Shown here: positions 12,742 to 53,483 of the stretch, piece after piece | How positions within the stretch are numbered: position 1 is the first letter of the stretch | Layout of the letters: each line of letters starts with the position of its first letter | Virus record (IMG/VR): IMGVR_UViG_3300020183_000017 | From: an uncultured virus (IMG/VR IMGVR_UViG_3300020183_000017) | Taxonomy: Duplodnaviria > Heunggongvirae > Uroviricota > Caudoviricetes | Length of the DNA stretch: 61,300 bases | Reading direction: 5' to 3' (one strand) | Translations under genes and position numbers: made by a program | Notes under the pieces: model-generated | Told to the model about the DNA's origin: nothing | Seen by the model: only the letters and a program-made list of their open reading frames with translations | Databases searched by the model: none

Positions 12742-13488
12742 ATGCCAGTCGCAACAAGAGAACAATTAAAAGAGTATTGTTTAAGAGAACTGGGTGCTCC
12801 AGTTCTCGAGATAAACGTAGACGAAGATCAGCTTGAAGATCGTATTGACGATGCTCTAGAAAAATTTAAAATATACCATCACGAAGGCACTGAAAAATTT
12901 TATCTAAAACATCAGATTACTGAAACAGATAAAACAAACAAGTATATTCCTATACCAGATGCCGTATATGGTGTTACTAGAGTTTTCCCAACAGGAGGCT
13001 CTGGCGCATCAGGATCTAGTCGTAATATGTTTGATATGCAATATCAACTACGATTACATGATCTATACGACTTAACAAGCACTTCTATTATCTACTACGA
13101 AATGGTAAGAGGTCATCTTGCTTTGTTAGATATGATTCTCAATGGGCATACGCTCTATCGTTTCAACAGACTTCAAAATAGATTACATCTAGATATTAAC
13201 TGGGAAAGCGATGTATCAGTTGGTGAGTATGTTTTAGTTGAGTGTTATCGTGCTTTAGATCCATCAACATTCCCACGAGTTTTTAATGAGCCATGGTTAA
13301 AGCATTTTACAACTGCATTGTTTAAGAGACAATGGGGGACTAACCTTAAAAAGTTTCAAGGTCTTCAACTTCCAGGTGGTGTTGTAATTGATGGTGATAA
13401 ACTATATCAAGAAGCAGTGCAAGAAATGAAAGAATTAGAGGACGATCTAATTAACAAATCTGCTCCGCTGGAGTTCTTCCTAGGATAA
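12742..13488 (+). CDS. gp13: Neck protein gp13
   Basis: 'LKEYCLRELGAPVLEINVDEDQLEDRIDDAL' and 'KRQWGTNLKKFQGLQLPGGVVIDG' motifs; synteny. Confidence 0.95.
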   Translation: MPVATREQLKEYCLRELGAPVLEINVDEDQLEDRIDDALEKFKIYHHEGTEKFYLKHQITETDKTNKYIPIPDAVYGVTRVFPTGGSGASGSSRNMFDMQYQLRLHDLYDLTSTSIIYYEMVRGHLALLDMILNGHTLYRFNRLQNRLHLDINWESDVSVGEYVLVECYRALDPSTFPRVFNEPWLKHFTTALFKRQWGTNLKKFQGLQLPGGVVIDGDKLYQEAVQEMKELEDDLINKSAPLEFFLG

Positions 13489-28362: not shown

Positions 28363-28914
28363 ATGGCAGGTGGAGCGCATTACGTAAACAATCAAGATTT
28401 TCTAGCTGCAATTATTGAGTGGAAAGCAAAAGTAAAAGAAGCTGAAGAGTGTGGTGAAGAAACACCACCAGTAACTAACTATATTGGTGAATGTCTTTAT
28501 AAGATAGCAACTCATCTATCCTATAAAGGCAACTTCATTAATTACTCTTATCGAGATGATATGATATTAGATGGAGTAGAGAACTGCTTATCTATCGTTA
28601 AAAACTTTGATCCCGCAAAATCAACAAATCCCTTTGCTTATTTTACACAGGTCATCTATTACGCTTTTCTTAGAAAAATCGCAAAAGAAAAGAAACAAAG
28701 CTACGTAAAGCAAAAACTAATTCAACAAATGCCTTTTGAAATGTTCGAGTTGCAGGAACATGATGAGGGCGATGAGCATCACAATACATACCTAGAATAT
28801 ATGCAGATGAATAATGACTTTGATGATTTTATTGAACGTAAAAAAGAAAAGCGTAAAAGCAAAAAAGCAAAAGCTGGTAACACTCTTGAGGACTTATTAA
28901 AAGGTGAAGAATGA
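28363..28914 (+). CDS. gp55: Late-transcription sigma factor gp55
   Basis: 'HYVNNQDFL', 'NFINYSYRDDMILDGVENC', 'NPFAYFTQVIYYAFLRKIAKEKKQ'. Confidence 0.97.
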   Translation: MAGGAHYVNNQDFLAAIIEWKAKVKEAEECGEETPPVTNYIGECLYKIATHLSYKGNFINYSYRDDMILDGVENCLSIVKNFDPAKSTNPFAYFTQVIYYAFLRKIAKEKKQSYVKQKLIQQMPFEMFELQEHDEGDEHHNTYLEYMQMNNDFDDFIERKKEKRKSKKAKAGNTLEDLLKGEE

Positions 28915-36522: not shown

Positions 36523-37193
36523 CAGCTATGGTTTATCGCTCCGCTTCGGCGATTAATGAAGCAATGGGTAGGGTCTATCTAAATATGTTTCTAGCAATTA
36601 TTGTTTCGATGGTAACTGCTGGTCTTGTTTCTTCTAGTCCAGCAGTGGTAGCATTTTTCTTTACGGGAATTATGAAGTGGGTTACAATTTTTGCTCCACT
36701 CGCATTTATCTTGGTGTTATCTTTTGGTATTGAGAAACTTAACAAACAACAAGCAACCCTTGCTCTTTATGCCTTTGCTGGTGTCTGGGGTATTAGTATG
36801 GCTGCTGTGTTCGTAGTATTTACTGTTGGTAGCATCGTATCAGCGTTTATGGGTGCTGCTATCTTATTTGGTATTATGTCTTTCTATGGATATTTCACAA
36901 AGAAAGATTTGACATCTTTTGGTCAGTTCTTATTCGTAGGATTGATCGCAATTATTATTGCAAGTGTTATTAACATCTTTGTTGGTAGTTCAGTTGGCGC
37001 TATGGTTATTTCAGCGCTCGCTATTATTGTGTTCCTTGGTTTAACAGCCTATGATACTCAGAACATTAGGAATATGGTTTCTTCTTCTGATGGTACAGGC
37101 AAAGAAGAAGTTATTGGTGCTCTAAGTTTGTACATCAACTTTATCAATATCTTCCTTGCGCTTCTACAATTATTTGGAAATCGTAATGAATAA
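36519..37193 (+). CDS. Bax inhibitor-1/YccA family membrane protein
   Basis: About seven hydrophobic segments, 'YGYFTKKDLT', 'LTAYDTQ', 'GALSLYINFINIFL.LLQLFG'. Confidence 0.9.
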   Translation: MTAMVYRSASAINEAMGRVYLNMFLAIIVSMVTAGLVSSSPAVVAFFFTGIMKWVTIFAPLAFILVLSFGIEKLNKQQATLALYAFAGVWGISMAAVFVVFTVGSIVSAFMGAAILFGIMSFYGYFTKKDLTSFGQFLFVGLIAIIIASVINIFVGSSVGAMVISALAIIVFLGLTAYDTQNIRNMVSSSDGTGKEEVIGALSLYINFINIFLALLQLFGNRNE

Positions 37194-37263: not shown

Positions 37264-37926
37264 ATGAAGTTGTCTAAAGAAACAGTCGGAGTCCTAAAAA
37301 ACTTCGCAACCATTAATGCCAATCTTTTAATTAAAGATGGTTCTAAACTCTCAACCATCTCTGCTCAGAAGAATGTTATGGCTTCGGTCAGCGTTCCTGA
37401 AGTTTTTGATAGTGAGTTTGCCATCTATGATCTAAACGAATTCCTTGGAGCGTTATCTTTATTTGAAGATCCAGAACTGGATTTTTCGGAGAAGTCTGTT
37501 AAGATTAAGCAAGGTAACAACTCTATTCGTTACTATGCTGCTGATGTCGGAACTCTAACTGTTCCACCAGCAAAACAGATTAGCTTACCTTCTGATGACA
37601 TCTCATTTGAGTTAAATGCGTCTACTCTCGCTATGATTCAGCGTACTGCTTCTGTTCTGCATTCTAATGATGTAAGCGTAGTTGGTGATGGATCTATGAT
37701 TAAGATCGTAGTTGCCGACAAGAAAAATGCAGCTGCGAATGCCTATGAAGTAACCCTTGGTGATACTGATAAAACCTTTAAGATAAACTTAAAGGTTGAC
37801 AATCTTAAAATGATTCCTGGGAATTACTCTGTTGCTATTTCTAACAAGAAGATTAGTCGTTTCCAGGCAACTACTTCTGATCTAGTTTATTATGTTGCTG
37901 TTGAGGCTGATTCTACATTTGAATAA
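37264..37926 (+). CDS. gp45: Sliding clamp gp45
   Basis: 'MKLSKETVGVLKNFATIN', 'FAIYDLNEFL', 'YYVAVEADS'. Confidence 0.96.
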   Translation: MKLSKETVGVLKNFATINANLLIKDGSKLSTISAQKNVMASVSVPEVFDSEFAIYDLNEFLGALSLFEDPELDFSEKSVKIKQGNNSIRYYAADVGTLTVPPAKQISLPSDDISFELNASTLAMIQRTASVLHSNDVSVVGDGSMIKIVVADKKNAAANAYEVTLGDTDKTFKINLKVDNLKMIPGNYSVAISNKKISRFQATTSDLVYYVAVEADSTFE

Positions 37927-37983
37927 CTTCCTAAAAGAGATATAAATTGAATAGTATTCTTAATGAAGAAAGTGAAACATATT

Positions 37984-38922
37984 ATGGAACATTATTTGTG
38001 GGTAGAGAAGTATCGTCCTCAGAAAATTGATGATTGTATTTTATCTGATACGCTAAAGAAAACCTTTAGGGAGTTCATCGCTAGTGGAGAACTCCCTAAT
38101 TTTATTTTTAGTGGAACTGCTGGTGTTGGTAAAACTACTGTAGCAAAAGCACTATGTGAAGAAGTTGGCGCAGAATACTTGATGATTAACGGATCCGATG
38201 AGGGTCGTTCTATTGACACTCTTCGAACTGTTATCAAATCTTTTGCATCAACTGTTTCTTTGACTGATGCTAAGAAGGTTGTAATTATCGATGAGGCAGA
38301 CTATATGAATGCTGATTCAGTACAGCCAGCATTGCGCGCTTTCATTGAAGAGTTCGCAGGTAATTGTCGTTTTATCTTTACTTGTAATTTTAAGCATCGT
38401 CTTCTTGATGCTCTTCAGTCTCGCTGTATTAATGTCGATTTTAAAATTGATGGTAGCGAGAAACCTAAGATCGCAGCTGCTTTCTATAAGAGAATCGTTG
38501 ATATTCTTTCTTCCGAGCAAGTTGAGTTTGACACTAAGGTTGTAGCTGAACTTGTAACCAAACACTTCCCAGACTTCCGCAGAACTCTGAATGAACTTCA
38601 GCGTTACTCAGTTTCTGGTAAGATTGACTCTGGCATTCTTCTTAATATTAGTGATGAATCTTTCAAAGAGTTGGTTGAGTTGCTCAAAGCGAAGAAGTAT
38701 ACAGATATTCGTCGTTGGGTTGGTAAAAATGCAGATATGGGAACTGCTCATATTTTTCGCAATCTTTACGATAAAGCATCAGAAGTTATGGATGCATCAT
38801 CTATTCCTCAGCTTGTTGTTACTCTTGCAGATTATCAATATAAATCTGCTTTTGTGGCAGACCAGGAGATAAATATGATGGCTGCTTTAACTGAACTGAT
38901 GGTAAACTGTAAATTCAAATGA
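37984..38922 (+). CDS. gp44: Clamp loader large subunit gp44
   Basis: 'LWVEKYRP', 'GTAGVGKTT', 'IIDEADY', 'LQSRC', 'FPDFRR'. An alternative start lies at 37963. Confidence 0.96.
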   Translation: MEHYLWVEKYRPQKIDDCILSDTLKKTFREFIASGELPNFIFSGTAGVGKTTVAKALCEEVGAEYLMINGSDEGRSIDTLRTVIKSFASTVSLTDAKKVVIIDEADYMNADSVQPALRAFIEEFAGNCRFIFTCNFKHRLLDALQSRCINVDFKIDGSEKPKIAAAFYKRIVDILSSEQVEFDTKVVAELVTKHFPDFRRTLNELQRYSVSGKIDSGILLNISDESFKELVELLKAKKYTDIRRWVGKNADMGTAHIFRNLYDKASEVMDASSIPQLVVTLADYQYKSAFVADQEINMMAALTELMVNCKFK

Positions 38923-39233
38923 ATCTCTTAGACTTAATTATTCTCCTTCTCTATGGATTCCTCTGTTATCGTTTTGGTTGGCTTGCTCGCGAGGCTTCTG
39001 CTAAAAGCCAAGTAAACAAACTTATACGAAAAATCGAAACAGAAAACTCGCAAGAAGATATAGTGCGCATCTATTTTGAACAAGAACAAGGAACTTTATT
39101 TGCGTTTAACTATGAGACCAATGAGTTTATTGCTCAGGGTAAAGACAGAGAAAGTCTTTTATCTGCTATGGTTGAGCGCTTCCCTAGAACCAAGTTTATA
39201 GTCGAGCGAGAAAAGCTCGAAAATTTATCATGA
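38919..39233 (+). CDS. Hypothetical protein with N-terminal membrane anchor
   Basis: 'LLDLIILLLYGFLCYRFGW' hydrophobic N-terminus; coupled between gp44 and gp62. Confidence 0.65.
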   Translation: MNLLDLIILLLYGFLCYRFGWLAREASAKSQVNKLIRKIETENSQEDIVRIYFEQEQGTLFAFNYETNEFIAQGKDRESLLSAMVERFPRTKFIVEREKLENLS

Positions 39234-39619
39234 ATCCATTTGACTTTATAAATGCCGTTTCTTATACGAAGGAGGATCTGCTAAAGAAAGACACATTAGC
39301 AGCCAAGGACTACAAAAAGAGTGCCTTTATTATTAACAGGGGACTGTCCTACTTCATGGACACGGTAGCCTATGCCAATGTGATGAACCAACACTCACAA
39401 ATCCCACCAGAATGGCAATTTTCATTTTACCTAAATAGCATTGTAAAGAAGAAGCGTTTCTCCAAGTGGAACGAAAGGGAGAAGTTTGGGAAACACTTTT
39501 CTTTGGTAAAGGAGTATTTTAAGTACTCCGATGAAAAGGCGAAAGTTGCTATGAGCATACTAACGGATGATCAACTGAAAGAAATACAAGAAAAACTATA
39601 TAAAGGTGGAAAATCATGA
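39230..39619 (+). CDS. gp62: Clamp loader small subunit gp62
   Basis: 'PFDFINAVS', 'FIINRGLSYFMD', 'KKKRFSKW', 'YFKYSDEKA', C-terminal 'KGG'. Confidence 0.92.
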   Translation: MNPFDFINAVSYTKEDLLKKDTLAAKDYKKSAFIINRGLSYFMDTVAYANVMNQHSQIPPEWQFSFYLNSIVKKKRFSKWNEREKFGKHFSLVKEYFKYSDEKAKVAMSILTDDQLKEIQEKLYKGGKS

Positions 39620-41580: not shown

Positions 41581-42135
41581 ATGTATATGTTTGACATTGA
41601 AACCTTAGACACCGAATCCACTGCTGTAGTTTTATCTGCTGCAATTTTATATTTCGAACAGGGTGATGATTATGAGTCATTACTCAGCAAAACACTTTTC
41701 GTTAAACTAGATAGTAGAATTCAGATACAAGAATATAATAGAACAGTATCTAAAAGTACACTAGACTTTTGGAAAACTATGCACCCAGCAATACGTGCCA
41801 AGAGTTTTGAACCTACCGATAATGACCTTCACCCGAAGCAAGCAATTGAAATGATCAATGAGTATATTGCTAAACATGGCGATGCATTAATCTGGGCACG
41901 TGGTTCCCTTGATCAAATGGTTATTGACAGTCTTTCTTTGAAACTTGGTATGGATCGCATTATGCCGTATAATAATTGGCGTGATGTTAGAACAGCAGTT
42001 GACTGTCTATGTTCTACTGCTAAGAATGGATATTGCGAAGTTGACCATCCAACATTCAAGCGTCACAATGTTATTAAACACAACCCCATTCATGATTGCG
42101 CATATGACGCAATGATGCTAATGTATGGAGTATAA
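41581..42135 (+). CDS. DEDDh 3'-5' exonuclease (DexA/Rv2179c-like)
   Basis: 'MFDIETL', 'IWARGSLD', 'RDVRT', 'HNPIHDCAYD'. Confidence 0.85.
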   Translation: MYMFDIETLDTESTAVVLSAAILYFEQGDDYESLLSKTLFVKLDSRIQIQEYNRTVSKSTLDFWKTMHPAIRAKSFEPTDNDLHPKQAIEMINEYIAKHGDALIWARGSLDQMVIDSLSLKLGMDRIMPYNNWRDVRTAVDCLCSTAKNGYCEVDHPTFKRHNVIKHNPIHDCAYDAMMLMYGV

Positions 42136-44632
42136 TTTGGATTTCTATACAAACGTATATCTACAAGGCAACAATCTTCTTGTTAGAGGATATGATGCCA
42201 ACAAACCCGTCTCATTTAAAGTTGACTTTCAGCCAACAGTATATGTTATTTCTTCAAAGGGTCATCCTGGTTCTCCGATGACAACTCTTGATGGGACTTC
42301 GGTCTATCCGATGAATCCTGGAAGCATACGAGATTGTCGTGAATTTATTGATCAATATAAAGATATTGAAGGATTTCCTATCTACGGAAATACGAACTAT
42401 GTTGCGCAATATATCAGCGACACTCACAAAGGTGAAGTCAAATGGGATCGTGAACTAATTAAGATCTACTCTATTGACATTGAAACTAAGACAGAAGATG
42501 GCTTTCCTGATATGGAAACTGCTAATGAAGAACTTCTTCTTATCACTGTTCAAGATAACAACACAAAAGAAATTACTACCTTCGGCACAAATCCTGCTAT
42601 TGGTTTAGATCATAACATAAAATATATTCAGTGTAAGAGTGAGGAACATCTTCTAAGAGAGTTCCTTGCTTTTTGGCGTTTGAGTCCACCTGATGTTATC
42701 ACTGGTTGGAACATTGAGTTTTTTGACGTTCCTTATTTGATTCGTAGAATTATCAATGTGCTTGGTGAGAATCAGGCGAAGAAGATATCTCCTTGGGGTA
42801 TAATCCACGAGAAACGAATTGTCGTCAAAGGTGTTGAAGAAATTAGTTATGACATTGCTGGTATTAGTTCACTTGACTATCTAGATCTATATCGTAAATA
42901 CACTTACTCTGCTCAAGAATCTTATAAGTTAGATCATATCGCATACATTGAACTTGGTGAGAAAAAGAAAGAAAATCCTGGAGATTCTTTTAAGGACTTC
43001 TATACTAATTACTGGGATAGTTTTGTTGTATATAACATCAATGACGTAAGACTTGTTGATAAACTTGAAGACAAGATGCGACTGATTGAACTTCAGTTGA
43101 CTATGGCATATAACGCAAAGATTAACTACGTTGATGTGTTTAGTCAAGTTCGTATGTGGGATGCTATTATCTATAATCACCTTAGAGATAAGGGTGTAGT
43201 GATTCCACCAAATGCTGGTAATAGAAAAGACTCTGCGTTTGAGGGCGCGTATGTCAAAGATCCTCTTGTTGGTTTGCACAAGTGGGTTGTTTCTTTTGAC
43301 TTAAACTCACTATATCCTCACCTCATTATGCAGTATAATATCTCACCAGAGACTTTGCGTTCTGGTCGAATTCATACTAGCGTTGATCAGTTACTTGCTG
43401 GTAAAGTTGACACCAAACTGTTGCAGACTTGCGATCTAACGATGACTGCTAATGGTGTTTGCTACGATAAAAGTAAACAAGGATTTATGCCAGCATTGAT
43501 GGAAGAGATGTACATTAATCGTAGTAAGTTTAAGAAACAGATGTTAAAGATTCAGCAAGAGTATGAACAAACTAAAAACAAATCTTTGGTGAAAGAAATC
43601 TCTCGTCTGAACAATCTTCAGATGGCTATGAAGATTGCTTTAAACTCAGCTTATGGTGCGATGGGTAACCAATATTTTAGATACTTCGATATTCGCATGG
43701 CTGAAGGTATTACGACTTCTGGTCAGTTGTCTATTCGCTGGATTCATGATAAGATGAATGCGTTTATGAACAAAGTTCTAAAAACCGAAGGCAAAGATTA
43801 TATCATTGCAGTTGACACTGATTCAATCTATGTTACCTTTGAAGACCTAGTTGATAAGTATTATCCTGGAAACTCAACAGATAAAACCATAAAATTCATG
43901 GATCGTTTCTGTGAAGACAAGGTTCAACCATATATCGACAATTGTTACAACGAATTGGCGCAAATGATGAATACCTATTCTCAAAAGATGCAGATGAAGC
44001 GTGAAGTTCTTGCTGACAAGGGTATTTGGACTGCAAAGAAACGCTACATATTGAACGTGCATAACTCTGAGGGTGTTCAATATGCAGAGCCAAAGATTAA
44101 AGTTATGGGTCTTGAGATGGTCAAGTCTTCAACTCCAGCAGTCATTCGTGATAAACTAAAAGACTCTATCAAAGTTATTCTTGCTGGCGATGAAACTATG
44201 CTACATAAGTATGTTATGCAGTTCAGAGAAGAATTTAATAAGATGAGTGTTGAAGAGATTGCTTTCCCACGTGGTGTGAATGGAATTAAAACTTATGCAG
44301 GAACAAGCAGCGTTTATGCTAAGTCAACTCCGATTCATGTTCGTGGTGCTCTACTATACAATCACCAAATTAAAGAAAAGAAACTTACACACATACACCA
44401 ACTAATCAAAGACGGAGAGAAAATTAAGTTTGTTTATTTGAAGAAACCAAATCCTATTAATGAAGATGTGATTTCTTTCTTAGGAACTCTACCTCGTGCT
44501 CTAAATTTACATAAGTATATTGATTACGATAAACAGTTTGAGAAAGTTTTTCTTGATGCTCTGTCTAACGTAATAGAACCATTGGGTTGGCATGTTGAAG
44601 AACAAGTTACCCTAGAGTCATTTTTCGGATAG
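42125..44632 (+). CDS. gp43: Family B DNA polymerase gp43
   Basis: ExoI 'SIDIET', 'FDLNSLYPH', 'KIALNSAYG', 'DTDS'; C-terminal 'TLESFFG'. True start may be the TTG at 42137. Confidence 0.98.
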   Translation: MEYNLDFYTNVYLQGNNLLVRGYDANKPVSFKVDFQPTVYVISSKGHPGSPMTTLDGTSVYPMNPGSIRDCREFIDQYKDIEGFPIYGNTNYVAQYISDTHKGEVKWDRELIKIYSIDIETKTEDGFPDMETANEELLLITVQDNNTKEITTFGTNPAIGLDHNIKYIQCKSEEHLLREFLAFWRLSPPDVITGWNIEFFDVPYLIRRIINVLGENQAKKISPWGIIHEKRIVVKGVEEISYDIAGISSLDYLDLYRKYTYSAQESYKLDHIAYIELGEKKKENPGDSFKDFYTNYWDSFVVYNINDVRLVDKLEDKMRLIELQLTMAYNAKINYVDVFSQVRMWDAIIYNHLRDKGVVIPPNAGNRKDSAFEGAYVKDPLVGLHKWVVSFDLNSLYPHLIMQYNISPETLRSGRIHTSVDQLLAGKVDTKLLQTCDLTMTANGVCYDKSKQGFMPALMEEMYINRSKFKKQMLKIQQEYEQTKNKSLVKEISRLNNLQMAMKIALNSAYGAMGNQYFRYFDIRMAEGITTSGQLSIRWIHDKMNAFMNKVLKTEGKDYIIAVDTDSIYVTFEDLVDKYYPGNSTDKTIKFMDRFCEDKVQPYIDNCYNELAQMMNTYSQKMQMKREVLADKGIWTAKKRYILNVHNSEGVQYAEPKIKVMGLEMVKSSTPAVIRDKLKDSIKVILAGDETMLHKYVMQFREEFNKMSVEEIAFPRGVNGIKTYAGTSSVYAKSTPIHVRGALLYNHQIKEKKLTHIHQLIKDGEKIKFVYLKKPNPINEDVISFLGTLPRALNLHKYIDYDKQFEKVFLDALSNVIEPLGWHVEEQVTLESFFG

Positions 44633-44640
44633 GAGAATCT

Positions 44641-45069
44641 ATGAATCGTTTTTATACCGCAGTCGGATTTCTGTTTTTGGTATTAACACTACCAGCTAAA
44701 GCAAACCCATATGATTATAAAGTAACTCGTGTTCTTGACGGTGATACCGTTGAGTTTGAAGCAAAGTTTATGCCACCACCACTGAAGCCTACACTGGTTA
44801 TTCGTGTTCTTGGTGTTGACACACCAGAAAAGGGTGGTCGTGCTCAATGCGAGAAAGAAGCAAAGATGGGTGCAATGGCAACTGCTTTTACAAAGAAGCA
44901 AATTGCAGAAGCAAAGAAAATTCAAATTGAATTAAAAGAACATGATAAGTTTGGTGGTAGAGTTCTTGGTGATGTAATCTTGGATGGTAAGCGTCTTTCA
45001 GAATTGCTAATTGCTGCTGGTCTTGCAAGACCGTATTTTGGAGAGAAGAAATCATCTTGGTGCGATTGA
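44641..45069 (+). CDS. Thermonuclease (SNase family) with a predicted signal peptide
   Basis: 'RVLDGDTV', 'IRVLGVDTPE', 'DKFGGRVLG'; N-terminus 'MNRFYTAVGFLFLVLTLPAKA'. Confidence 0.88.
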   Translation: MNRFYTAVGFLFLVLTLPAKANPYDYKVTRVLDGDTVEFEAKFMPPPLKPTLVIRVLGVDTPEKGGRAQCEKEAKMGAMATAFTKKQIAEAKKIQIELKEHDKFGGRVLGDVILDGKRLSELLIAAGLARPYFGEKKSSWCD

Positions 45070-45094
45070 CTTTTCATAGAGCCAGTAGTATAAT
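45066..45094 (+). promoter_or_regulatory. Sigma70-type promoter (uvsX-gp41-modification genes)
   Basis: TTGACT-N17-TATAAT. Confidence 0.8.
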
Positions 45095-45114
45095 TAAATT
45101 ATTTGGAGGATATT

Positions 45115-46173
45115 ATGAGTTTTTTAAAATCTATTGTCAAGGAATTAGATAATGAATATGCGGGTATTGCTGACGATGGTGTTGTTGGTGACACTGCTGG
45201 CTTTATCGATACTGGTAGTTATGCCTTTAATGCATTGCTTTCAGGGTCAATACATGGTGGTTTGCCATCTAACAAAGTAACAGCACTTGCTGGTGAGTCT
45301 TCAACAGGTAAGACATTTTATGCTTTAGGAATCTGTAAACATTTTCTGAATGGCAACCCAAATGCAGGTGTTGTTTACTTTGAAACTGAAGGCGCATTAA
45401 CAAAAGATATGTTGACTGAGCGAGGAATTGATACTCGTCGATTTGTCATTGTTCCTGTTTCAACTGTTCAAGAATTTAGAACCCAAGCTACTAAGATTCT
45501 TGATGCGTATGACAAAGAAAAGAAAGATAGTCGCCCACCTCTGTTAATGTGTCTTGATTCACTTGGTATGCTTTCAACCACTAAAGAGATGGAAGATATT
45601 GCTGAGGGTAAAGAAACTCGTGATATGACACGTGCTCAATTGGTTCGTGGTGCGTTCCGTGTTCTTTCTTTAAAGCTGGCGAAATTAGATATCGCAATGA
45701 TTGTTACTAACCATACTTACGCTGTCGTCGGTGCATATGTTCCAACAAAGACAATGGGCGGTGGTGATGGTCTGAAATATGCAGCATCCACTATCGTGTT
45801 CCTGTCTAAATCAAAAGATAAGGATGGCACTGAGGTGATTGGTAACATTATTAAATGCAAATTAGAGAAGTCTAGATTTACCAAAGAACAATCTATGGTT
45901 GAAACTAAACTATCATTTTCTACAGGTCTAGATCGTTATCATGGGCTACTTGATCTTGCTGTTGAAGCAGGTATCTGGAAGTCACAAGGTGGTCGTATTG
46001 AATTAGAAGATGGTAAAAAGTTATTTGGTAAAAACATTAATGAAAATCCTACTACATATTTCACTGAAGATATTATGAAACGCATTGATGCTTACTGCGC
46101 AACAAAATATAAATTTGGTTCAGATGTTGTTGTAGAAGATGAGGAACTTGAAGATGAATCAGCCAACGTGTGA
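45115..46173 (+). CDS. uvsX: RecA-like recombinase UvsX
   Basis: 'AGESSTGKT', '[11 protein letters not shown]', 'DMTRAQ', 'TNHTY', '[11 protein letters not shown]'. Confidence 0.96.
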
Positions 46174-46447
46174 GAATTATGAAGTTTTACCAGAGGTTAA
46201 TGATGAGGGTTTTTACAAAGTAAAGATCTTGTCTGGCGACTTTACTGGTTGCGTTTTTAATTTTGGTAAGGTAGCATTCCCTAATGAGGAAGAAGCAGTT
46301 ATGTCTTTTGAATATAACTTGCTTGAAGGTAAAGCTGATGATAAAGCAAAGTTTGAAAATACTATCGGCGATATCCTCGTTGCTCTTATTGTGAAAGCAA
46401 TAGAAAATAAAGATCTAATCTTCAAAGGTGGAACTGATGAGAATTGA
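46154..46447 (+). CDS. Small protein between uvsX and gp41 (gp40-like position)
   Basis: Synteny with T4 uvsX-40-41; '[18 protein letters not shown]' pattern. Confidence 0.6.
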
Positions 46448-47825
46448 GCAGTCGATTATTAGTAATTTGATTTTTGATGAAGAGTACTGCAGAAAAGTTA
46501 TACCGTTCCTAAAAGAACAATACTTCACAGAGAAGAAAGAAAGAATAATTATTTTAACGATCATACAGTTCTTCTCTAAATTCAATAAACCACTTACTAA
46601 AGAAATCCTTGGCATTGAAGTTTCTAACAGAACTGATGTCAACGATAAAGAACATACAGAACTACAATCAACAATTACTGAAATCTCTCAGAATGAGATT
46701 AACAAAGATTGGTTGATTGAACACACTGAGAAGTTTTGTAAAGATAGAGCAGTCTATCTTGCAATTATGGATTCTATTAAAATCATTGAGGGACGAGATG
46801 TCGCCCATACTAAAGATGCTATACCTTCTATTTTATCTGATGCTCTTGCCGTTTCATTTGATAATCATATCGGTCATGATTATATTGAGAATTCAGATGA
46901 ACGCTATGATTTTTATCATAGGGTTGAAGAGAAAATACCTTTCGATATTGAACTTCTCAACAAGATCACTAAAGGAGGTATTTCTAAGAAAACCTTGAAC
47001 GTGATTCTTGCTGGTACTGGTGTTGGTAAATCATTGTTTATGTGTCATGTTGCTGCTGGCGCTTTGGTTCAGAATTTAAATGTATTATACATAACTCTAG
47101 AGATGGCTGAAGAGCGTATCGCTGAGAGGATTGATTGTAATTTACTGAATCTTACTATGGATGAATTGAAGACTATCGACAGAGATATCTACACTAACCG
47201 AGTAAACAAGGTAGCAAACAAAACTCAGGGTAAACTAATCATTAAAGAATATCCTACGGCAACTGCGCACTCTGGTCACTTCCGTGCTTTGCTTGAAGAA
47301 CTAAAGATGAAGAAAGAGTTTGTTCCAGATTTGGTAGTCATTGACTATCTGAATATCTGTTCTTCTCAGAGACTTCGTCATGGGTCAAATGTTAATTCAT
47401 ATACATATATTAAGAGCATCGCAGAAGAAGTTCGAGGATTGGCAGTTGAATACAATGTTCCTATTCTGAGCGCAACTCAGACAACTCGTTCAGGGTTTAC
47501 TAACAGCGATCCAGGTTTGGAAGATACTTCTGAATCGTTTGGTTTGCCAGCAACAGTTGATTTTATGTGCGCTTTGGTTAGTACTGAAGAAATGGAACAG
47601 TTAAATCAGATTATGGTCAAACAACTCAAGAATCGTTACAGTGATCCAAATTATTACAAACGATTTATTGTTGGAGTTGACAGATCTAAGATGAAATTAT
47701 ATAATGTCGAAATGTCAGCGCAGAATGATATCGCTGACGTAGGTGATGTTGATGATACGCCATTATTCGACAAAAGTAAGTTTAGTAAACGAAACTCTAT
47801 AGATAGCTCTGGGTTTAAATTTTAA
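46437..47825 (+). CDS. gp41: Replicative helicase gp41
   Basis: 'LAGTGVGKSLFMCH', 'ITLEMAEERIAERID', 'IDYLNIC', 'SATQTTR', 'TSESFGLPAT'. Confidence 0.97.
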   Translation: MRIEQSIISNLIFDEEYCRKVIPFLKEQYFTEKKERIIILTIIQFFSKFNKPLTKEILGIEVSNRTDVNDKEHTELQSTITEISQNEINKDWLIEHTEKFCKDRAVYLAIMDSIKIIEGRDVAHTKDAIPSILSDALAVSFDNHIGHDYIENSDERYDFYHRVEEKIPFDIELLNKITKGGISKKTLNVILAGTGVGKSLFMCHVAAGALVQNLNVLYITLEMAEERIAERIDCNLLNLTMDELKTIDRDIYTNRVNKVANKTQGKLIIKEYPTATAHSGHFRALLEELKMKKEFVPDLVVIDYLNICSSQRLRHGSNVNSYTYIKSIAEEVRGLAVEYNVPILSATQTTRSGFTNSDPGLEDTSESFGLPATVDFMCALVSTEEMEQLNQIMVKQLKNRYSDPNYYKRFIVGVDRSKMKLYNVEMSAQNDIADVGDVDDTPLFDKSKFSKRNSIDSSGFKF

Positions 47826-47836
47826 CGGAGAATATA

Positions 47837-49162
47837 ATGGTAAAAGTATACGTAGCGCCAAAATATCACGAAAGCGAACATTTGCTTGGAATGTTTGTTG
47901 ATGAACAACAGTATGATGTTCTTGTTGAGGAAGATATGGATTGTTATCTTCCGCTGGGAACTAATATCGGTAATGATAAACTTGATGAGAAACGAATTGC
48001 ATTTAAGTTTAGAAAGAACTTCTTCACTAAAGAAGAACAACAAGCTGCATATGTTGGGCTTCGTGAAGCAGCTATCAGAACTGAGAATCGTGGACTTGCT
48101 TCTGGTATTAAAGCAGGAACTCAGGTTACTGGGGTTGGTCGTGAGTGGGTTACTAACTACCAAGAAGAAATGCTAAATGGTATTATCGACGCACGTAATG
48201 CAGCTATTGTTGATGAAGATGTCATCGAAACAATCAGATCCAAATATCCAACAGAAGAATCTAGACTGAAGGCTCTTGGTTCTGGTAAGAATAATGTTTG
48301 GGTCATCTCCCGTTTCCGTGGTAAGTTTAACTTTGATGAGTGGGTTGATTCTATCAAAACATTGGGTCGAGAAGAGCGAGCAAAATCAGCAGAAGAAACT
48401 ATGAAGATGGTTTCAGAAACTTCTTATGGTAATCCAGTTGACTCGGGTATTGCTGGTTGGTTCGATCGCTATCCACGTATTCCTTATGGTCGTGCAACAA
48501 CATACACAAGAGATAATTGGGATAAGTTTAAGATGGCATTTCCATTCTTACAATCTTTGAATCGTGGTTTCAAAGAACTTCTTCCATGGCGTTGGTCTAA
48601 TCAGAAAGCAGCAGCTGATAAGATTGATCAAAGTTTCTTAGTTCCTGAAACTGTGTTCACTACAATTACCGTGAATAAAACATTTAGAACTGCTGCCCAT
48701 CGCGACGCAGGTGACCTTGACTCAGGTCTTTCAAACCTTCTAGTTCTTTCCAATGATGGTCGTTTCACTGGAGGATATTTGGTGTTCCCTGAGATTCGTG
48801 TTGCTGTTAATGTGCGACCAGGAGATCTTCTATTAGTTAATAACCATGAAGTGATTCATGGCAATACTCCAATTGTTTGTGAGGAAGGTTCTGAGCGTAT
48901 TAGTCTAGTTTGTTACTTCCGCGAAAAGATGCTTGAACTTGGAAGTAAAGAATATGAAGATACACGTTATCAATTCGTTGAAGATCGCAGAACTAACCAA
49001 GAGCATCCAGAGTGGCGTAAGCTATGGAATGGTGTTTCTCCAAGTATGTGGGATAATCAAGAATGGTATGATTATCTTGAAGAGAAACTTGGTTATGATG
49101 AGTTAATTAAGTATCATCCTAAAGCAGAGAAAGCAAATTCTTTAGAAGGATTCTTTTCATAA
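47837..49162 (+). CDS. TET/JBP-family 2-oxoglutarate/Fe(II) dioxygenase (predicted methylpyrimidine hydroxylase)
   Basis: 'FTTITVNKTFRTAAHRDAGD' (HxD), 'GGYLVFPE', 'PGDLLL', 'IHGNTPI' (distal H), 'ERISLVCYFRE' (2OG-binding R). Confidence 0.88.
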   Translation: MVKVYVAPKYHESEHLLGMFVDEQQYDVLVEEDMDCYLPLGTNIGNDKLDEKRIAFKFRKNFFTKEEQQAAYVGLREAAIRTENRGLASGIKAGTQVTGVGREWVTNYQEEMLNGIIDARNAAIVDEDVIETIRSKYPTEESRLKALGSGKNNVWVISRFRGKFNFDEWVDSIKTLGREERAKSAEETMKMVSETSYGNPVDSGIAGWFDRYPRIPYGRATTYTRDNWDKFKMAFPFLQSLNRGFKELLPWRWSNQKAAADKIDQSFLVPETVFTTITVNKTFRTAAHRDAGDLDSGLSNLLVLSNDGRFTGGYLVFPEIRVAVNVRPGDLLLVNNHEVIHGNTPIVCEEGSERISLVCYFREKMLELGSKEYEDTRYQFVEDRRTNQEHPEWRKLWNGVSPSMWDNQEWYDYLEEKLGYDELIKYHPKAEKANSLEGFFS

Positions 49163-49866
49163 TGTGCGCTGTTATCGGTTGTGTTCTTAATAAACCAACG
49201 AAACAAGATTTCGCTATCATCAAGCGTGTGTTCATTGAATCTAAAATTCGAGGAATGCACGCTACAGGAATGTCTTTTCTACCTCGTTGGAAAGATGGTT
49301 TAGAAACCATTATTGCGCCAAGACCAGCGCATGAATTTGTTTTCCTACATATGCACGATGATAACTTACCGAGTATTGTAAACTCTGACGGCAATCTTTA
49401 TATGATTGGTCATTGCCGATATAGCACAAGCGACTTAGAATTCAATCAACCAATTTCTAATGTAAATAAATCTATCGCCCACAATGGAGTTATTACTCAA
49501 GAGTTGCCCGAGAACTGGAAAGAACTGTATGGTTATGACTGCATAACTAAGAATGATTCTGAACTTGTCCTGCATTCTAATGACCCATTGTCTGAGTTTC
49601 CAAATATGTCAATGGCTGTTTGTTCTTTAACTACGGATAGGGAACTTACTGCATATAGAAATGGAAAGCGTCCAATTTACTTGGCTAAACTTGAGAATGG
49701 GTTTATAATTACTTCAACAGCTGACATTGCTATTAGATCGGGGTTAAGCAATCCTGAAGAGATACCGATGAATAGTTATTATACAATCGATAGAAATATG
49801 AAACTACATATTACTAAGGTTGCCGTTGAGGGTGAAGATCTACAAAGGATTAATGATGTTTTCTAA
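49162..49866 (+). CDS. Class-II (Ntn) glutamine amidotransferase-like protein
   Basis: N-terminal nucleophile 'MCAVIG', 'RGMHATG', 'GHCRYSTS', 'NQP', 'HNGVI', 'NDSE'. Confidence 0.9.
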   Translation: MCAVIGCVLNKPTKQDFAIIKRVFIESKIRGMHATGMSFLPRWKDGLETIIAPRPAHEFVFLHMHDDNLPSIVNSDGNLYMIGHCRYSTSDLEFNQPISNVNKSIAHNGVITQELPENWKELYGYDCITKNDSELVLHSNDPLSEFPNMSMAVCSLTTDRELTAYRNGKRPIYLAKLENGFIITSTADIAIRSGLSNPEEIPMNSYYTIDRNMKLHITKVAVEGEDLQRINDVF

Positions 49867-50728
49867 AGACAAATACACTTATGGTATGGAAATTGAATGG
49901 GGTGACATACCAAGAAACATGACAGTCCCAGATAATCTTGGCGCATGGGAATATAGTGAACGTGATATCATTAACACAAGAGATCCCCATAAGAATGTTT
50001 GCGCTGATCCGCTTGGTGTTGAACCTCCATTTGGAGGTGAGATTAACACAAGACCAACTAGAACTTGGATTGAACAAGTAGATCGTTACTTTGAATTATA
50101 TGACTACTTCGATAAAGCTGGTCATCCTCCAACTATATGCACAACTAATCATACACACATACACTGTCACGTTCCAGGACTGAAAGAAGATGTAAATGCG
50201 CTAAAGCGTTTCATCAAATACGTAAAGGAAAACCAGCACACTGCCATTGAACATGCATATGGTTTCTATGAAACTGGAGATATGAAGCAAGTCAAAGGCG
50301 CAAAGATGTATCTAAAGTTTGATGGTGGTCGTCCAATGCCAGATTATATGTGCGATAACATCATCAACCTAGCAACAGACTTTGATCACTTTATTAAACT
50401 GCATGCTGCTGGAAAAGATGGCGTTTCTATGGGTCGTCCTTTTAGATACGCAATCAATACGTATTCAATGAAACATATCGGAACTATTGAGTTTCGTTTA
50501 TTCAGAGGTACATTAGATAGAGAAGAACTATCTTCTTGTTTTAGATTTGTTGAAGACTTTATTGATGCTGCTCTCAATGATGGTCCAAGCGTATATGATA
50601 TGATTGCTGAGGGTCGTTATAAATTTCCACCAATGATTTGGAGTCTTGAACAATTCAAAGGTTGGGAGAAAACAAAACATCCAGAAGATCGTGGAGAAAA
50701 GAAACGTGAGTTCATTGAAGTTGTCTAA
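49853..50728 (+). CDS. Putative amidoligase (COOH-NH2 ligase, glutamine synthetase/GCS-like fold)
   Basis: 'YTYGMEIEW', 'GGEINT', 'HTHIHCHV', 'RYAIN', 'TIEFRLFRGT'. Confidence 0.82.
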   Translation: MMFSKDKYTYGMEIEWGDIPRNMTVPDNLGAWEYSERDIINTRDPHKNVCADPLGVEPPFGGEINTRPTRTWIEQVDRYFELYDYFDKAGHPPTICTTNHTHIHCHVPGLKEDVNALKRFIKYVKENQHTAIEHAYGFYETGDMKQVKGAKMYLKFDGGRPMPDYMCDNIINLATDFDHFIKLHAAGKDGVSMGRPFRYAINTYSMKHIGTIEFRLFRGTLDREELSSCFRFVEDFIDAALNDGPSVYDMIAEGRYKFPPMIWSLEQFKGWEKTKHPEDRGEKKREFIEVV

Positions 50729-51263
50729 GTGTTCTCGTGCTGATTTTGTAGCAGCAATATCAACTGACAAAGAAGACTCATTTGCTAAGACTTTTGTCGC
50801 AAAAGCAGATATGCAAAAACAGTGGGGTGATTGTATTGGTGCGTGGGATAATGATCAACTATGTGGTGCTATTATAACAACTGTTGGTAAACGTCCACCA
50901 TATACTGCTAATCTTCAACTACTTCATACATTTGCTGCTCATAGAGGCAAGGGTGTTGCTAAACTTCTATGTCTTGATTCACTTCGCATTGCTAAGAAAA
51001 AGGGAGCAAAGTATTTTAGAGTTTCATCCGAGAAAGATGCTGTTGCTTTCTATGAGAAGATCGGCTTCAAGTTTTGGGGCAAGCAAAAATCTGGTTGTCA
51101 GTTATCTATCTTTAGAATAGATGGTTCAGACTTTGCAACTGGAGATTACGATTATACCGATCAGATTATAAACAATGCAATTCATAAGAAAGGTAAGGGT
51201 GGGTGTGTGGAGATATTTGATATTGCAAACCTTCCCAAACCTGTTACTCTAGAAGGGTTTTGA
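50706..51263 (+). CDS. GNAT-family acetyltransferase
   Basis: Acetyl-CoA motif A 'HRGKGVAKLL' and motif B 'AVAFYEKIGF'; GTG start chosen from the upstream GGAG. Confidence 0.88.
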   Translation: MSSLKLSKCSRADFVAAISTDKEDSFAKTFVAKADMQKQWGDCIGAWDNDQLCGAIITTVGKRPPYTANLQLLHTFAAHRGKGVAKLLCLDSLRIAKKKGAKYFRVSSEKDAVAFYEKIGFKFWGKQKSGCQLSIFRIDGSDFATGDYDYTDQIINNAIHKKGKGGCVEIFDIANLPKPVTLEGF

Positions 51264-51278
51264 GGAGTCAAAAATACC

Positions 51279-51307
51279 TTGCCTTTCATTCAAGAGTATG
51301 GTATAAT
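51279..51307 (+). promoter_or_regulatory. Sigma70-type promoter inside the modification cluster
   Basis: A-tract + TTGCCT-N17-TATAAT. Confidence 0.8.
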
Positions 51308-51338
51308 ATACTTACTATAAACTCTTGAATAATACATT

Positions 51339-51941
51339 ATGAAACCGCATTATAAACTTGTCTGTGACTATGTGTTCTCTGATAAAAACATAAGCGAATA
51401 CAGCGACTGTGAGCAAATGACTATCAACCTTGCCATAGAAGTTTTGACTACTCATGGTATGGGTGGTAAGTTTATGGAAACTCTTATACGAGAAAAGTAT
51501 AGACTTGGTAATGATGGTAAGATTCATGGTTGGGACGGCATGACTAAACAGAATCGTCCAGTTGAAATTAAAACTGAAACTGTTAATGATTCAAAGAAGT
51601 TATTTTGTGAAGCATCCTTTGCTCCTAATACTGAAAAAGCTCCAAGCAAGAAACAACAATTCCTCAAAGAAAAACCAATCTTGATTAGCAGTGGATTATG
51701 TAATGATACAGGTAAGTGTATATACGTTATGTTCACAGACACGGATAAGTTAAATCCTAATGCTAAGATTTTTGATATGCTTGATCGAAATTCTCCAAGG
51801 ATTAACTTCAGTCACTGGTGCGCAAATACTGATGCTTTCGATGTTAAATATAAAAACTTAAAACTCGTAGATAAACATTTTTACTCTATGCGTGAAGAAC
51901 TTAGAAAAGAACTTAAGAATGTCGCTAGATTACCGTTCTAA
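51339..51941 (+). CDS. Hypothetical protein, possible PD-(D/E)xK endonuclease
   Basis: 'FMETLIRE...HGWDGMTKQNRPVEIKTET' fits E...D-x(n)-ExK; has its own promoter. Confidence 0.55.
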   Translation: MKPHYKLVCDYVFSDKNISEYSDCEQMTINLAIEVLTTHGMGGKFMETLIREKYRLGNDGKIHGWDGMTKQNRPVEIKTETVNDSKKLFCEASFAPNTEKAPSKKQQFLKEKPILISSGLCNDTGKCIYVMFTDTDKLNPNAKIFDMLDRNSPRINFSHWCANTDAFDVKYKNLKLVDKHFYSMREELRKELKNVARLPF

Positions 51942-52944
51942 AGAAAATAGACGTGAGGCATTTATTCGATGGTATGCGTGGTCATTAAAACACAATGACT
52001 GCGATCCAGCCATTTGGCTCACAAACTATTTGAACTCAAGATATGAACATAATGATGAAGAGAGAATTTGGCTTTGTTGGTTATATGGTAACACGTATCA
52101 AATGCCAACTGCTTGGGTTCTGAAGAATGAGTTTCCAGATTTTGAATTAGCAACATACGATAGAATGAAATTATGGAACTCTGCTAATTATCCTAAATTA
52201 AGATATCAGACTGATACGAAATGGAACAAGGGTCATCTCCCAGAAATGTTTGCTTCGTATAGAAAGTTTATTGGAGATAAAACACAACGAGAGGCATTGG
52301 AGAATTACTATGGAGATAATGAGGAAGCAAACTTTGAGGCTTTGTGGAGCAGCATTAAAAGTGGGCTTCATAAGTTTGGTCGTTACTCCACTTGGTTTTA
52401 TCTTCAGCATCTTAAGCATACTGCTGGCATTCGGATTAATCCTACTAGCCTCATGCTTAATGATTATGATGGCTCTCGCTCTCATCGTAATGGACTTCTT
52501 TATGCCATTGGGCAAGATGACGATCTGGACAGAAAACTGTCTGCAGGAGATTATGCGAGACTTGAATCACAAGCAAGGGAGATTGTGGAGGAAACGAAAG
52601 ATAGGTTCGCCGAGATAGCGCACCTTGTTGATTTCTTCACAATGGAAACTTGCTTATGCTCATTTAAGAAAATCTTTAGAGAGCATCATGGAAGATATCT
52701 TGGTTATTATCTTGATAGGCAATCTGAAGAGATTCAAGTGGCTGAGGGTGATGGGTGGTATGGTATTGACTGGGATGTTCTATGGCAAGCAAGAAATGAA
52801 ACACTCGATCCAAAACTTACGGGAAGAAATAAAATTAACAAAGAGAACTTTTCTTTGTTTGTTGATTCAGGTAGAATCATGAGACTAGAATGGATGTTTG
52901 ACGATATTAAAACTAAGCCAATTGGCTTGGAGGCATTTTTATGA
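51919..52944 (+). CDS. Amino acid:DNA transferase (aGPT-Pplase2-like, HhH-glycosylase-derived fold)
   Basis: 'DCDP', 'WLCWLYGNTY', 'YQTDTKW', HhH-like 'HKFGRYSTWFYLQHL', 'METCLCSFKK', 'RYLGYYLDR'; adjacent to a P-loop kinase. Confidence 0.8.
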   Translation: MSLDYRSKENRREAFIRWYAWSLKHNDCDPAIWLTNYLNSRYEHNDEERIWLCWLYGNTYQMPTAWVLKNEFPDFELATYDRMKLWNSANYPKLRYQTDTKWNKGHLPEMFASYRKFIGDKTQREALENYYGDNEEANFEALWSSIKSGLHKFGRYSTWFYLQHLKHTAGIRINPTSLMLNDYDGSRSHRNGLLYAIGQDDDLDRKLSAGDYARLESQAREIVEETKDRFAEIAHLVDFFTMETCLCSFKKIFREHHGRYLGYYLDRQSEEIQVAEGDGWYGIDWDVLWQARNETLDPKLTGRNKINKENFSLFVDSGRIMRLEWMFDDIKTKPIGLEAFL

Positions 52945-53483
52945 GAAAGATTGTAGCAGTGGGTGGATCGCCAGGAACTGGTAAGACTACTCTGTTTAGA
53001 AAATTTATGGAGAATAAAGAATGGGAATTTGTTGAGCCCAAGAAACTTCTCCCTGCGCTTTATAATAAAGAACTAGATCTGTACATCCTTGGTAAATATG
53101 AAGAAGGCGAAACTTTTGCAGGAACTGATCGGTTAAGTATGGCTGTTCAACCAACAGCGCAAGAGTTCGTGATGGAATGCACCTCTAATATCTTGTTTGA
53201 GGGTGACCGAATTTTCAATCAGTCTTTCCTAGAATTCTGTTCTGCTCTTCCCAATACCGACTTGAGGGTTCTTTTTCTAAAAGTTCCAAAGGAGATTTTA
53301 GGAGATAGATACAAAGAGAGGGGATCAGACCAGTCTGAAACTTTCTTAAAAGGTAGAGAAACTAAATATAGTAATCTACTGGCAAACTTTGAACTGATGC
53401 CCTATATTACTGAGTTTGTAAATACTAACTTAGAGGAGCAGCAGAAAGTTCTTGCATATCTGGAGGATTCCTTCTCCGTTTGA
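52941..53483 (+). CDS. P-loop kinase, predicted hydroxymethylpyrimidine-DNA kinase
   Basis: 'GGSPGTGKTT', 'LGKYEEGETFAGTDRLSM', 'ILFEGDRI', lid 'RYKERGS'; ATGA-coupled to the transferase. Confidence 0.8.
   Translation: MRKIVAVGGSPGTGKTTLFRKFMENKEWEFVEPKKLLPALYNKELDLYILGKYEEGETFAGTDRLSMAVQPTAQEFVMECTSNILFEGDRIFNQSFLEFCSALPNTDLRVLFLKVPKEILGDRYKERGSDQSETFLKGRETKYSNLLANFELMPYITEFVNTNLEEQQKVLAYLEDSFSV

Follow-up and report, generated by a model that had tools for sequence, protein, structure and literature searches.

Why should enzymes that modify the bases of DNA end in the same short peptide as the DNA polymerase of their own phage? The question is raised by the virus record IMGVR_UViG_3300020183_000017 (IMG/VR; uncultured, Caudoviricetes), a stretch of 61,300 nucleotides that is part of a T4-like myophage and is called here, at its full length, the window. 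Immediately 3' of its helicase gene gp41 lies an operon that contains, in this order, genes for a TET/JBP dioxygenase, a glutamine amidotransferase (GATase), orf302, a GNAT acetyltransferase, orf200, an amino acid:DNA transferase (ADDT or AADT, PF18724) and a P-loop kinase. As an earlier note on this DNA had reported, the TET, GNAT and ADDT proteins close with peptides like that of the DNA polymerase gp43, and the sequences and coordinates of all four tails were confirmed. The tails are the last 5–7 residues of their proteins. They are given below from the translations of the open reading frames (ORFs), together with a related peptide near the end of gp55.

44609..44629, + strand: C-terminal tail of gp43, TLESFFG (…VTLESFFG), the reference clamp-binding-type peptide
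49139..49159, + strand: tail of TET, SLEGFFS (…NSLEGFFS)
51246..51260, + strand: tail of GNAT, TLEGF (…VTLEGF), the weakest of the three enzyme tails
52924..52941, + strand: tail of ADDT, GLEAFL (…IGLEAFL)
28882..28899, + strand: near-C-terminal TLEDLL of gp55 (protein ends …NTLEDLLKGEE), the positive control, as gp55 is an established clamp client and its peptide is of this tail type

The preferred answer, to which a probability of about 0.72 is assigned, is that these tails would be docking peptides for the sliding clamp gp45 that tether hypermodification enzymes to it. The tail observation itself is real and far beyond chance. When the motif was defined as [LIM][DE]xF with up to three further residues, it closed 5 of the 64 window ORFs, and 0.23 were expected from the internal positions of the same proteins (Poisson P = 4.4e-6). 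A cruder count, of stop-to-stop frames with L[ED]x[FLIMW] among their final 8 residues, gave 7 of 218. The fifth match belongs to a structural protein.

12742-13488, + strand: gp13-like neck protein (phrog_211), ending …APLEFFLG; tail at 13465..13485

Because this protein also matches, the motif alone is not fully specific. Its ending is kept in three of four complete relatives (APLEFFMG, APLDMFLG, APLEFFLG) and reflects either the fold or an unexplained resemblance to a clamp tail; the protein is probably not part of the system. For this reason, it was treated as background, together with a similar end on a baseplate-hub protein.

The conservation of the tails was followed in homologous loci. 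Searching viral contigs with the TET protein gave 80 loci (57–100% identity), and three cultured T4-like phages were added to give 83. The 1460 ORFs of the window and these loci were grouped into 404 families, and those unique sequences were counted whose last 8 residues contain [LI][ED]xF; the complete relatives used were G002, G003, G005 and G006. The strict tail is present in all 37 unique homologues of gp43, in 60 of 71 for TET and in 30 of 33 for ADDT. It is kept loosely in the GNAT, where 9 of 27 homologues have the strict form and 25 of 27 fit a relaxed motif with an internal background of 6.6%; the relaxed motif also brings TET to 67/71. The GNAT variants include VDLNSFL, LDLQVFS and VKIDDF. 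The earlier note had found no clear copy in the GATase, orf302 or the kinase, and this extends beyond the window: not a single unique homologue has the strict tail among those of the GATase (45), the amidoligase-like orf302 (29) or the kinase (27). The same is true of UvsX (46), gp41 (57), orf102 (43), orf252 (30), the exonuclease (25) and DUF6267 (20). A BLAST-based count made without dereplication agrees, with 0/30 for the kinase.

Further tailed families occur in the relatives and are missing from the window. A second GNAT family ends in PSLE(E/D)FL in 10 of 10 sequences, and a GT1 glycosyltransferase ends in (L/M)(D/E)x(F/L)F(G/A) in 12 of 12. TET-associated glycosyltransferases (TAGT) are tailed as well, with DLSSFFN in DLP_6 and DLSKLF in Cr30. 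In the nearest complete relative, G002, whose gp43 is 90% identical, the tailed GT1 replaces the whole block from GATase to kinase. It follows that cassettes are swapped and that the incoming DNA enzymes are tailed. TET and the orf252 homologue flank the single site of this exchange (window 49162-53483; 7523-8872 of L008 in G002).

The strongest evidence for clamp docking is the covariation of the enzyme tails with the polymerase tail of each phage. Three tail types can be distinguished, namely LExFF, VNLLxMM and RKLW, which belong to the window clade, Ackermannviridae and Vibrio phage D509, respectively. The cognate pairs are as follows.

Window: gp43 TLESFFG; TET SLEGFFS, GNAT TLEGF, ADDT GLEAFL
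C48C1: gp43 TLEDFFG; TET SLEEFFV
DLP_6: gp43 TLDSFFA; TET TLGDFFV, TAGT DLSSFFN
Cr30: gp43 DLSSLFD; TAGT DLSKLF, TET GATLF (weak), ADDT WFKVL (none)
Melnitz: gp43 TLEDFFG; TET-like NLNDFLGE; C5-methyltransferase without a tail
Serratia 3M: gp43 VNLLSMMGKR; ADDT VNLLSMLGGKK
CBA120: gp43 VNLLSMMGKKG; ADDT VNLMTLLKR
Ag3: gp43 VNLLAMMQKKKG; ADDT VNLMALLKR
0507-KN2-1: gp43 VNLLAMMGKKG; ADDT VNLMSLMKK
XF4: gp43 VNLLAMMQKKKG; ADDT VSLLGLLKR
Bue1: gp43 VNLMAMLKK…; ADDT NLLSLFGR
Vibrio D509: gp43 KKARKLW; ADDT KTRKLW

Every ORF C-terminus in eight complete genomes was also ranked against the core of the cognate gp43 tail, with internal positions as the null; for DLP_6, gp43 and TAGT were taken from annotated genes. 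Genome-wide, the modification enzymes stand at the top. The leading entries are GT1, TET and the baseplate hub in G002, TET and GT1 in G003, TET in both G005 and G006 (with the ADDT fourth in G006), TAGT in Cr30 and TET in DLP_6. In CBA120 they are a 70-aa phrog_4789 protein, HMUDK_hel (PF18723), the ADDT and HMUD2 (PF18747), and in D509 the ADDT, HMUD2, the phrog_4789 protein and HMUDK_hel. Thus, both 5-hydroxymethyldeoxyuridine (5-hmdU) DNA kinases, PF18723 and PF18747, have the polymerase tail in these two phages.

The architecture of the tails is that of a peptide outside the fold. Alignments of 31 ADDTs and of 57 TETs show a variable linker of about 4–8 residues between the last conserved elements of the fold and the conserved tail. 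In the ADDT tail, G345, L346 and E347 are invariant and F349 is conserved in at least 90%; in the TET tail, F439 and F440 are conserved in at least 90%. AlphaFold2 models have a mean pLDDT (predicted local distance difference test) of 78.6 for TET and 77.9 for ADDT (predicted template modelling score, pTM, 0.80), and the local value drops under 50 precisely at TET 437-441 and ADDT 337-350. The codons also vary. Across relatives, the Leu position is written with 5–7 codons (synonymous Leu, or Ile), Glu with GAA or GAG and Phe with TTC or TTT, and the four tails of the window differ from each other in codon spelling. Recent copying and a purely nucleotide-level constraint are therefore excluded, and the codon pattern points to selection on the peptide and not on the DNA.

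The proposed partner of the tails is encoded in the replication module of the window.

37264..37926, + strand: gp45 sliding clamp, the proposed docking partner (PF09116 4.4e-11, phrog_223 6e-74)
37963..38922, + strand: gp44, clamp-loader large subunit (PF21328, PF00004; phrog_168 1.4e-121)
39230..39619, + strand: gp62, clamp-loader small subunit (PF16790 5.5e-14, phrog_225)
42125..44632, + strand: gp43, family-B DNA polymerase (phrog_262 E=0, PF00136, PF03104)
28363-28914, + strand: gp55 (phrog_234 4.9e-59)

A profile built from 58 homologues of the window gp45 matches T4 gp45 (1CZD, 6DRT) and RB69 gp45 (1B77/1B8H) over the full length with E ~1e-37. Outside the clade, gp45-type frames were found in CBA120, D509 and 3M, of which only that of D509 is above the Pfam cut-off. 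None was found in Mycobacterium phage Hydro or Glutamicibacter phage Montesquieu, and the ADDTs of these two phages have no such tails (…AGLRRFK and …KEEYLF). The TETs of podophage HTVC112P, with ParB adjacent, of siphophage P12024L and of S-CBWM1 are also tail-less, and no T4-type gp43 was found in S-CBWM1.

In T4 and RB69, gp43, gp55 and gp33 have C-terminal clamp-binding motifs, and T4 DNA ligase has an internal LDFLF loop (PMC6212786, PMC7892883). The T4 proteins end in SLDFLFG (gp43), SLDFLYEAND (gp55) and TLDFLL (gp33), with a common LDFL core, and binding of the gp43 tail to gp45 is established (PMC6212786). That gp45 would also be the partner of the enzyme tails is suggested by analogy with these three clients. 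The tail type of the clade occurs on gp55 in four genomes, and in relatives of the window gp55 ends in NSLEDLIKGEE, NNLESFLGD.. and SNLDDFIGD... A T4 gp33 query gave only weak matches (E ~5e-4), in two of eight proteomes.

The phrog_4789 protein also ends in the polymerase tail of its own phage: KVNLLSLMSK in CBA120 (L153:9731-9943, 70 aa) and KPKTKRLW in D509 (L163:17591-17890, 99 aa). From its ending, it may be a candidate gp33-like clamp-dependent factor. A different case is the gp41 helicase (46428-47825). Most of its 57 unique homologues share a strongly conserved tail, (S/E)F(x)GFKF, which is unlike that of gp43 and may dock on another partner. Two further candidates were rejected. An 83-aa family that ends in LLEFLKG turned out to be thioredoxin (PF00085), whose last helix forms this ending. 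An RNase H-type protein (phrog_107; G002 123065-123937 and homologues in G003, G005 and G006) ends in …LLDELEDF in 4 of 4 complete relatives; T4 RNase H ends in …INEF and those of Cr30 and DLP_6 are similar, independent of tail type, so this is a family feature and does not support a clamp tail.

The chemistry to which the tails would be coupled can be read from the genes downstream of gp41.

47837..49162, + strand: TET/JBP 5-methylpyrimidine dioxygenase, probably a thymine dioxygenase (PF12851 4.1e-24)
49162..49866, + strand: class-II GATase, tail-less (PF13522 4.9e-7)
49820..50728, + strand: orf302, amidoligase-like, tail-less (atlas clusters; likely true start 49856)
50646..51263, + strand: GNAT acetyltransferase (PF13673 9.4e-12, PF00583 3.9e-9)
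51339..51941, + strand: orf200, tail-less (no Pfam or NCBIfam match; homologue in 1 other locus of 83)
51892..52944, + strand: ADDT/AADT (PF18724 4.6e-21)
52941..53483, + strand: P-loop kinase, probable 5-hmdU DNA kinase (PF18751 7.4e-6, just under the cut-off)

The structural genes of the phage reach up to ~25 kb and are followed by the replication module in the order gp55, gp47/46, gp45, gp44, gp62, regA, gp43, UvsX and gp41. The gene names are backed by Pfam and PHROGs profile matches. A megablast search of 42125-53483 against cultured phages returned zero matches, and the region is without a close cultured relative at the DNA level. For orf302 there was no Pfam match; in its atlas clusters, PF12224 is present on 30–51% of members with a score of 0.98, which supports an amidoligase as a lead, and the atlas sequence begins at residue 13. 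The likely true start of the ADDT is 51925, since homologues begin at residue 12, and its stop overlaps the start of the kinase gene (ATGA). Between GNAT and ADDT, orf200 gives weak atlas leads to the type II restriction-endonuclease families PvuII, MamI, ThaI and SmaI, and could by these leads be a nuclease inserted into the modification operon. Two other genes stand apart from it. The gene at 36519-37193, just upstream of gp45, is for a membrane protein of the Bax inhibitor-1 family (PF01027, 1e-48), which is unusual in a phage replication module, and a single 3109-aa ORF at 3403-12732, upstream of the neck gene, is presumably a giant structural or fibre protein.

The TET residues H288, D290, H337 and H341 are invariant in 57 sequences, and the iron triad HxD…H is assigned by pattern to H288, D290 and H341. 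No C5-cytosine methyltransferase (PF00145) was found in any of five complete relatives. ParB (PF02195) was likewise not found in any of the five, with matches in control genomes, nor among the window genes scanned. Because a kinase and an AADT share the operon and no C5-methyltransferase was found, the TET substrate is probably thymine, which would be converted to 5-hydroxymethyluracil (5-hmU) in DNA. In the pathways of ViI, M6, PaMx11 and PhiW-14, 5-hmdU in DNA is acted on by a 5-hmdU DNA kinase, AADT adds a free amino acid and tailoring follows (PMC8989533). Published AADTs (aGPT-Pplase clade 2) combine the PF18724 domain with a conserved active-site cysteine and a nearby glutamate (PMC8989533). 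In the 31 ADDT sequences, E252, C254 and C256 are invariant. Following these precedents (PMC8989533, PMC13229309), the kinase of the window would phosphorylate 5-hmU, and the AADT would add an amino acid, on which GATase, amidoligase and GNAT would then act as tailoring enzymes. Metavirome clusters with TET, amidoligase and glutaminotransferase have already been noted (PMC8989533). PaMx11 gp48 is a GNAT that acetylates the base in DNA (PMC8989533), and by this analogy it is plausible that the window GNAT acts on DNA.

The ViI kinases gp67 and gp243 and the serine:DNA transferase gp247 were shown experimentally to act on DNA (PMC8989533), and the tailed enzymes of CBA120 and D509 belong to these three families. 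The earlier note had also suggested that enzymes without a tail make a soluble donor. This part did not hold, as the window kinase, which is of the DNA-acting 5-hmdU DNA kinase type (PMC8989533), is tail-less and the DNA kinases of CBA120 and D509 are tailed. The absence of a tail therefore says nothing about the substrate. The family of the window kinase has a conserved ending of its own, (V/I)LxFLE(K/G)x(F/L)x, whose spacing differs by one residue from that of the gp43 motif and which seems to continue a helix.

What survives of the earlier note's proposal that the enzymes ride gp45 is its core: by their conservation and linkers, their covariation, their presence on gp55 and their absence where no T4-type clamp or polymerase is found, the tails look like polymerase-type docking peptides. 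The TET/JBP, the ADDT and, less certainly, the GNAT tails would be clamp-binding motifs of the type at the end of the phage's own polymerase, where it most likely serves to hold the clamp. Each tail, on its short flexible linker, would occupy the hydrophobic pocket of one gp45 subunit. The enzymes would thereby be tethered to clamps that gp44/62 loads on replicating phage DNA. On the newly made duplex, TET would oxidize thymine, ADDT would transfer an amino acid to 5-phosphomethyl-uracil and GNAT would tailor the product. Docking may in this way raise activity or improve targeting. The earlier note's further proposal, that modification is thereby aimed at phage and not at host DNA, is not supported; the clamp marks primed or nicked DNA, and not phage DNA as such.

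A bolder extension is tentative and rated well below even odds. It holds that gp45 takes the role that ParB, a CTP-dependent DNA clamp, has for related thymine dioxygenases, that a loaded clamp is obligatory or strongly activating, and that the trimeric clamp is a tool-belt for successive hypermodification steps. Its clients would be the three tailed enzymes here, and the two kinases and the AADT in ViI-like phages and D509. Some clade-C1 TETs without ParB are inactive for reasons that are not known (PMC13229309), and inactivity was seen when they were expressed alone in E. coli (PMC8256090). If the extension is true, clamp dependence would explain these inactive enzymes, and co-expressed gp45/44/62 is predicted to rescue them.

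Several observations weigh against clamp tethering. The GNAT, with its loose tail (9/27 strict), is the weakest case because the relaxed motif also fits the different FxGFKF ending of gp41 (39 of 57). The kinase, which is expected to act on DNA, is tail-less throughout the window clade (0/27). The Cr30 ADDT and TET (…WFKVL and …GATLF) show little or no match to DLSSLFD, the tail of their polymerase, and the weak gp33 homologues in G005 and G006 end in …AKLD(V/I) and not in the tail type of the clade. The linkers are short, about 5–8 residues, and may limit reach. That the polymerase tail itself binds a clamp is, in the VNLLxMM and RKLW types, deduced from its position. A rival reading is that the tails share a partner other than gp45, for example some other protein of the replisome or nucleoid or a scaffold for modification enzymes, which the polymerase tail would contact as well in these lineages. 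Covariation shows that a partner is shared and not which one it is, neither VNLLxMM-basic nor RKLW tails have an experimental clamp link, and the weak gp33 homologues lack the tail type of the clade. This is nevertheless judged improbable, since the window type is close to the established gp45 binder of T4, gp55 is also tailed, and the tail-bearing lineages all have a gp45-type frame, with tails missing where none was found. An outside chance is given to docking on gp45 that is mainly regulatory, in which the enzymes compete with gp43, gp55 and gp33 to time replication, late transcription and modification, or are kept near DNA for packaging control. The clamp has three sites for several clients (gp43, gp55 and three enzymes here), and in T4 the interaction of gp45 with alpha-glucosyltransferase is not considered the main determinant of modification level (PMC13216743), which also counts against tethering as such. 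Nevertheless, the tailed, DNA-acting enzymes differ widely in catalysis, and in CBA120 and D509 they are precisely those families whose ViI members act on DNA (PMC8989533); tethering is the simpler explanation.

The tails might also be a non-functional resemblance that arises from hydrophobic ends intrinsic to the folds, from nucleotide constraints such as ribosome-binding sites and promoters, or from recent copying of 3' ends. Look-alike ends do exist on structural proteins, the gp13-like neck protein (in the window and three of four complete relatives) and the baseplate hub, and the (E/D)F ending of RNase H is a family feature of both the clade and T4. In addition, the (T/C)TG GAG codons of the ADDT tail form a GGAG 8 nt before the ATG of the overlapping kinase gene (GAG in 23 of 24; TTG GAG in the window, 52927-52944), and part of the ADDT tail conservation may come from this ribosome-binding site. 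Nevertheless, every conserved tail position shows synonymous codon diversity, the four window tails differ in codons, and tails are kept despite different downstream genes. The low pLDDT and variable linkers speak against a fold element, the window has 5 matches for 0.23 expected, and three unrelated tail types each fit their cognate polymerase. Mere resemblance is largely refuted by the covariation and codon evidence and is considered very improbable. Tethering of the enzymes to gp45 is thus preferred.

A literature search, supplements excluded, gave no report of the tails or of their covariation, and the papers found on phage TET enzymes and thymidine hypermodification draw no link to a sliding clamp. 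The text of PMC8989533 and PMC5889632 contains no occurrence of "clamp", "replisome" or "processiv". If true, the proposal would reveal a way in which phages tie elaborate post-replicative base chemistry to replication. A peptide of 5–7 residues, portable and copied from the polymerase, would plug any DNA-modifying enzyme into the clamp and would move with swapped tailoring cassettes. It offers a testable reason for the inactivity of phage TETs in heterologous assays. Published in vitro reconstitutions of the ViI type are suggested to lack a loaded clamp, which could raise efficiency or change sequence context. Finally, a sequence rule would be available for phage proteins of unknown function that act on DNA, namely a C-terminus that matches the polymerase tail of their own phage.

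The closest known system consists of the gp43, gp55 and gp33 tails of T4 and RB69. In both cases, a short hydrophobic peptide lies at the extreme C-terminus behind a flexible linker in a phage that encodes a gp45 homologue, and (S/T)L(D/E)xFF here is the counterpart of T4 SLDFLFG. The clients differ, as those proposed here are base-modifying enzymes (TET/JBP, AADT, GNAT, GT1, TAGT and 5-hmdU DNA kinases) and not replication or transcription factors; the VNLLxMM-basic and RKLW types are without an experimental counterpart. A precedent for a modification enzyme on the clamp is the T4 alpha-glucosyltransferase, a post-replicative hypermodification enzyme of a T4-type phage whose binding to gp45 was reportedly described by Sommer et al. 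in 2004. A pull-down has since shown this binding, and it is the expression level, not gp45 binding, that mainly sets the modification level and the alpha/beta ratio (PMC13216743, 2026). There is no gp43-type peptide at the C-terminus of this enzyme (…KEQFDIITK) and none was found internally by regular expression, whereas here a modular tail is common to several unrelated enzymes.

The ParB-dependent 5-methylpyrimidine dioxygenases (5mYOX) of clade C1 (PMC13229309) belong to the same enzyme family, keep the same gene company (GATase, P-loop kinase and AADT) and would share the use of a DNA-encircling accessory. Over residues 201-377, the core of the window TET shares 53% identity with the TET that lies next to ParB in Pelagibacter phage HTVC112P. 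The T4-like TETs differ in that they are without ParB (5/5 complete relatives), longer (441 vs 302 aa) and polymerase-tailed, whereas the ParB-adjacent TET is tail-less. With ViI, M6, PaMx11 and PhiW-14, the window shares kinase, AADT and GNAT-type tailoring genes, and its operon is of the published type. Outside phages, DNMT1 is recruited to PCNA via a PIP box. That system serves eukaryotic maintenance methylation, its motif is not C-terminal, and its clamp and enzyme families are different ones. The principle is nevertheless alike, in that a DNA-modifying enzyme is coupled to replication by a short clamp-binding peptide.

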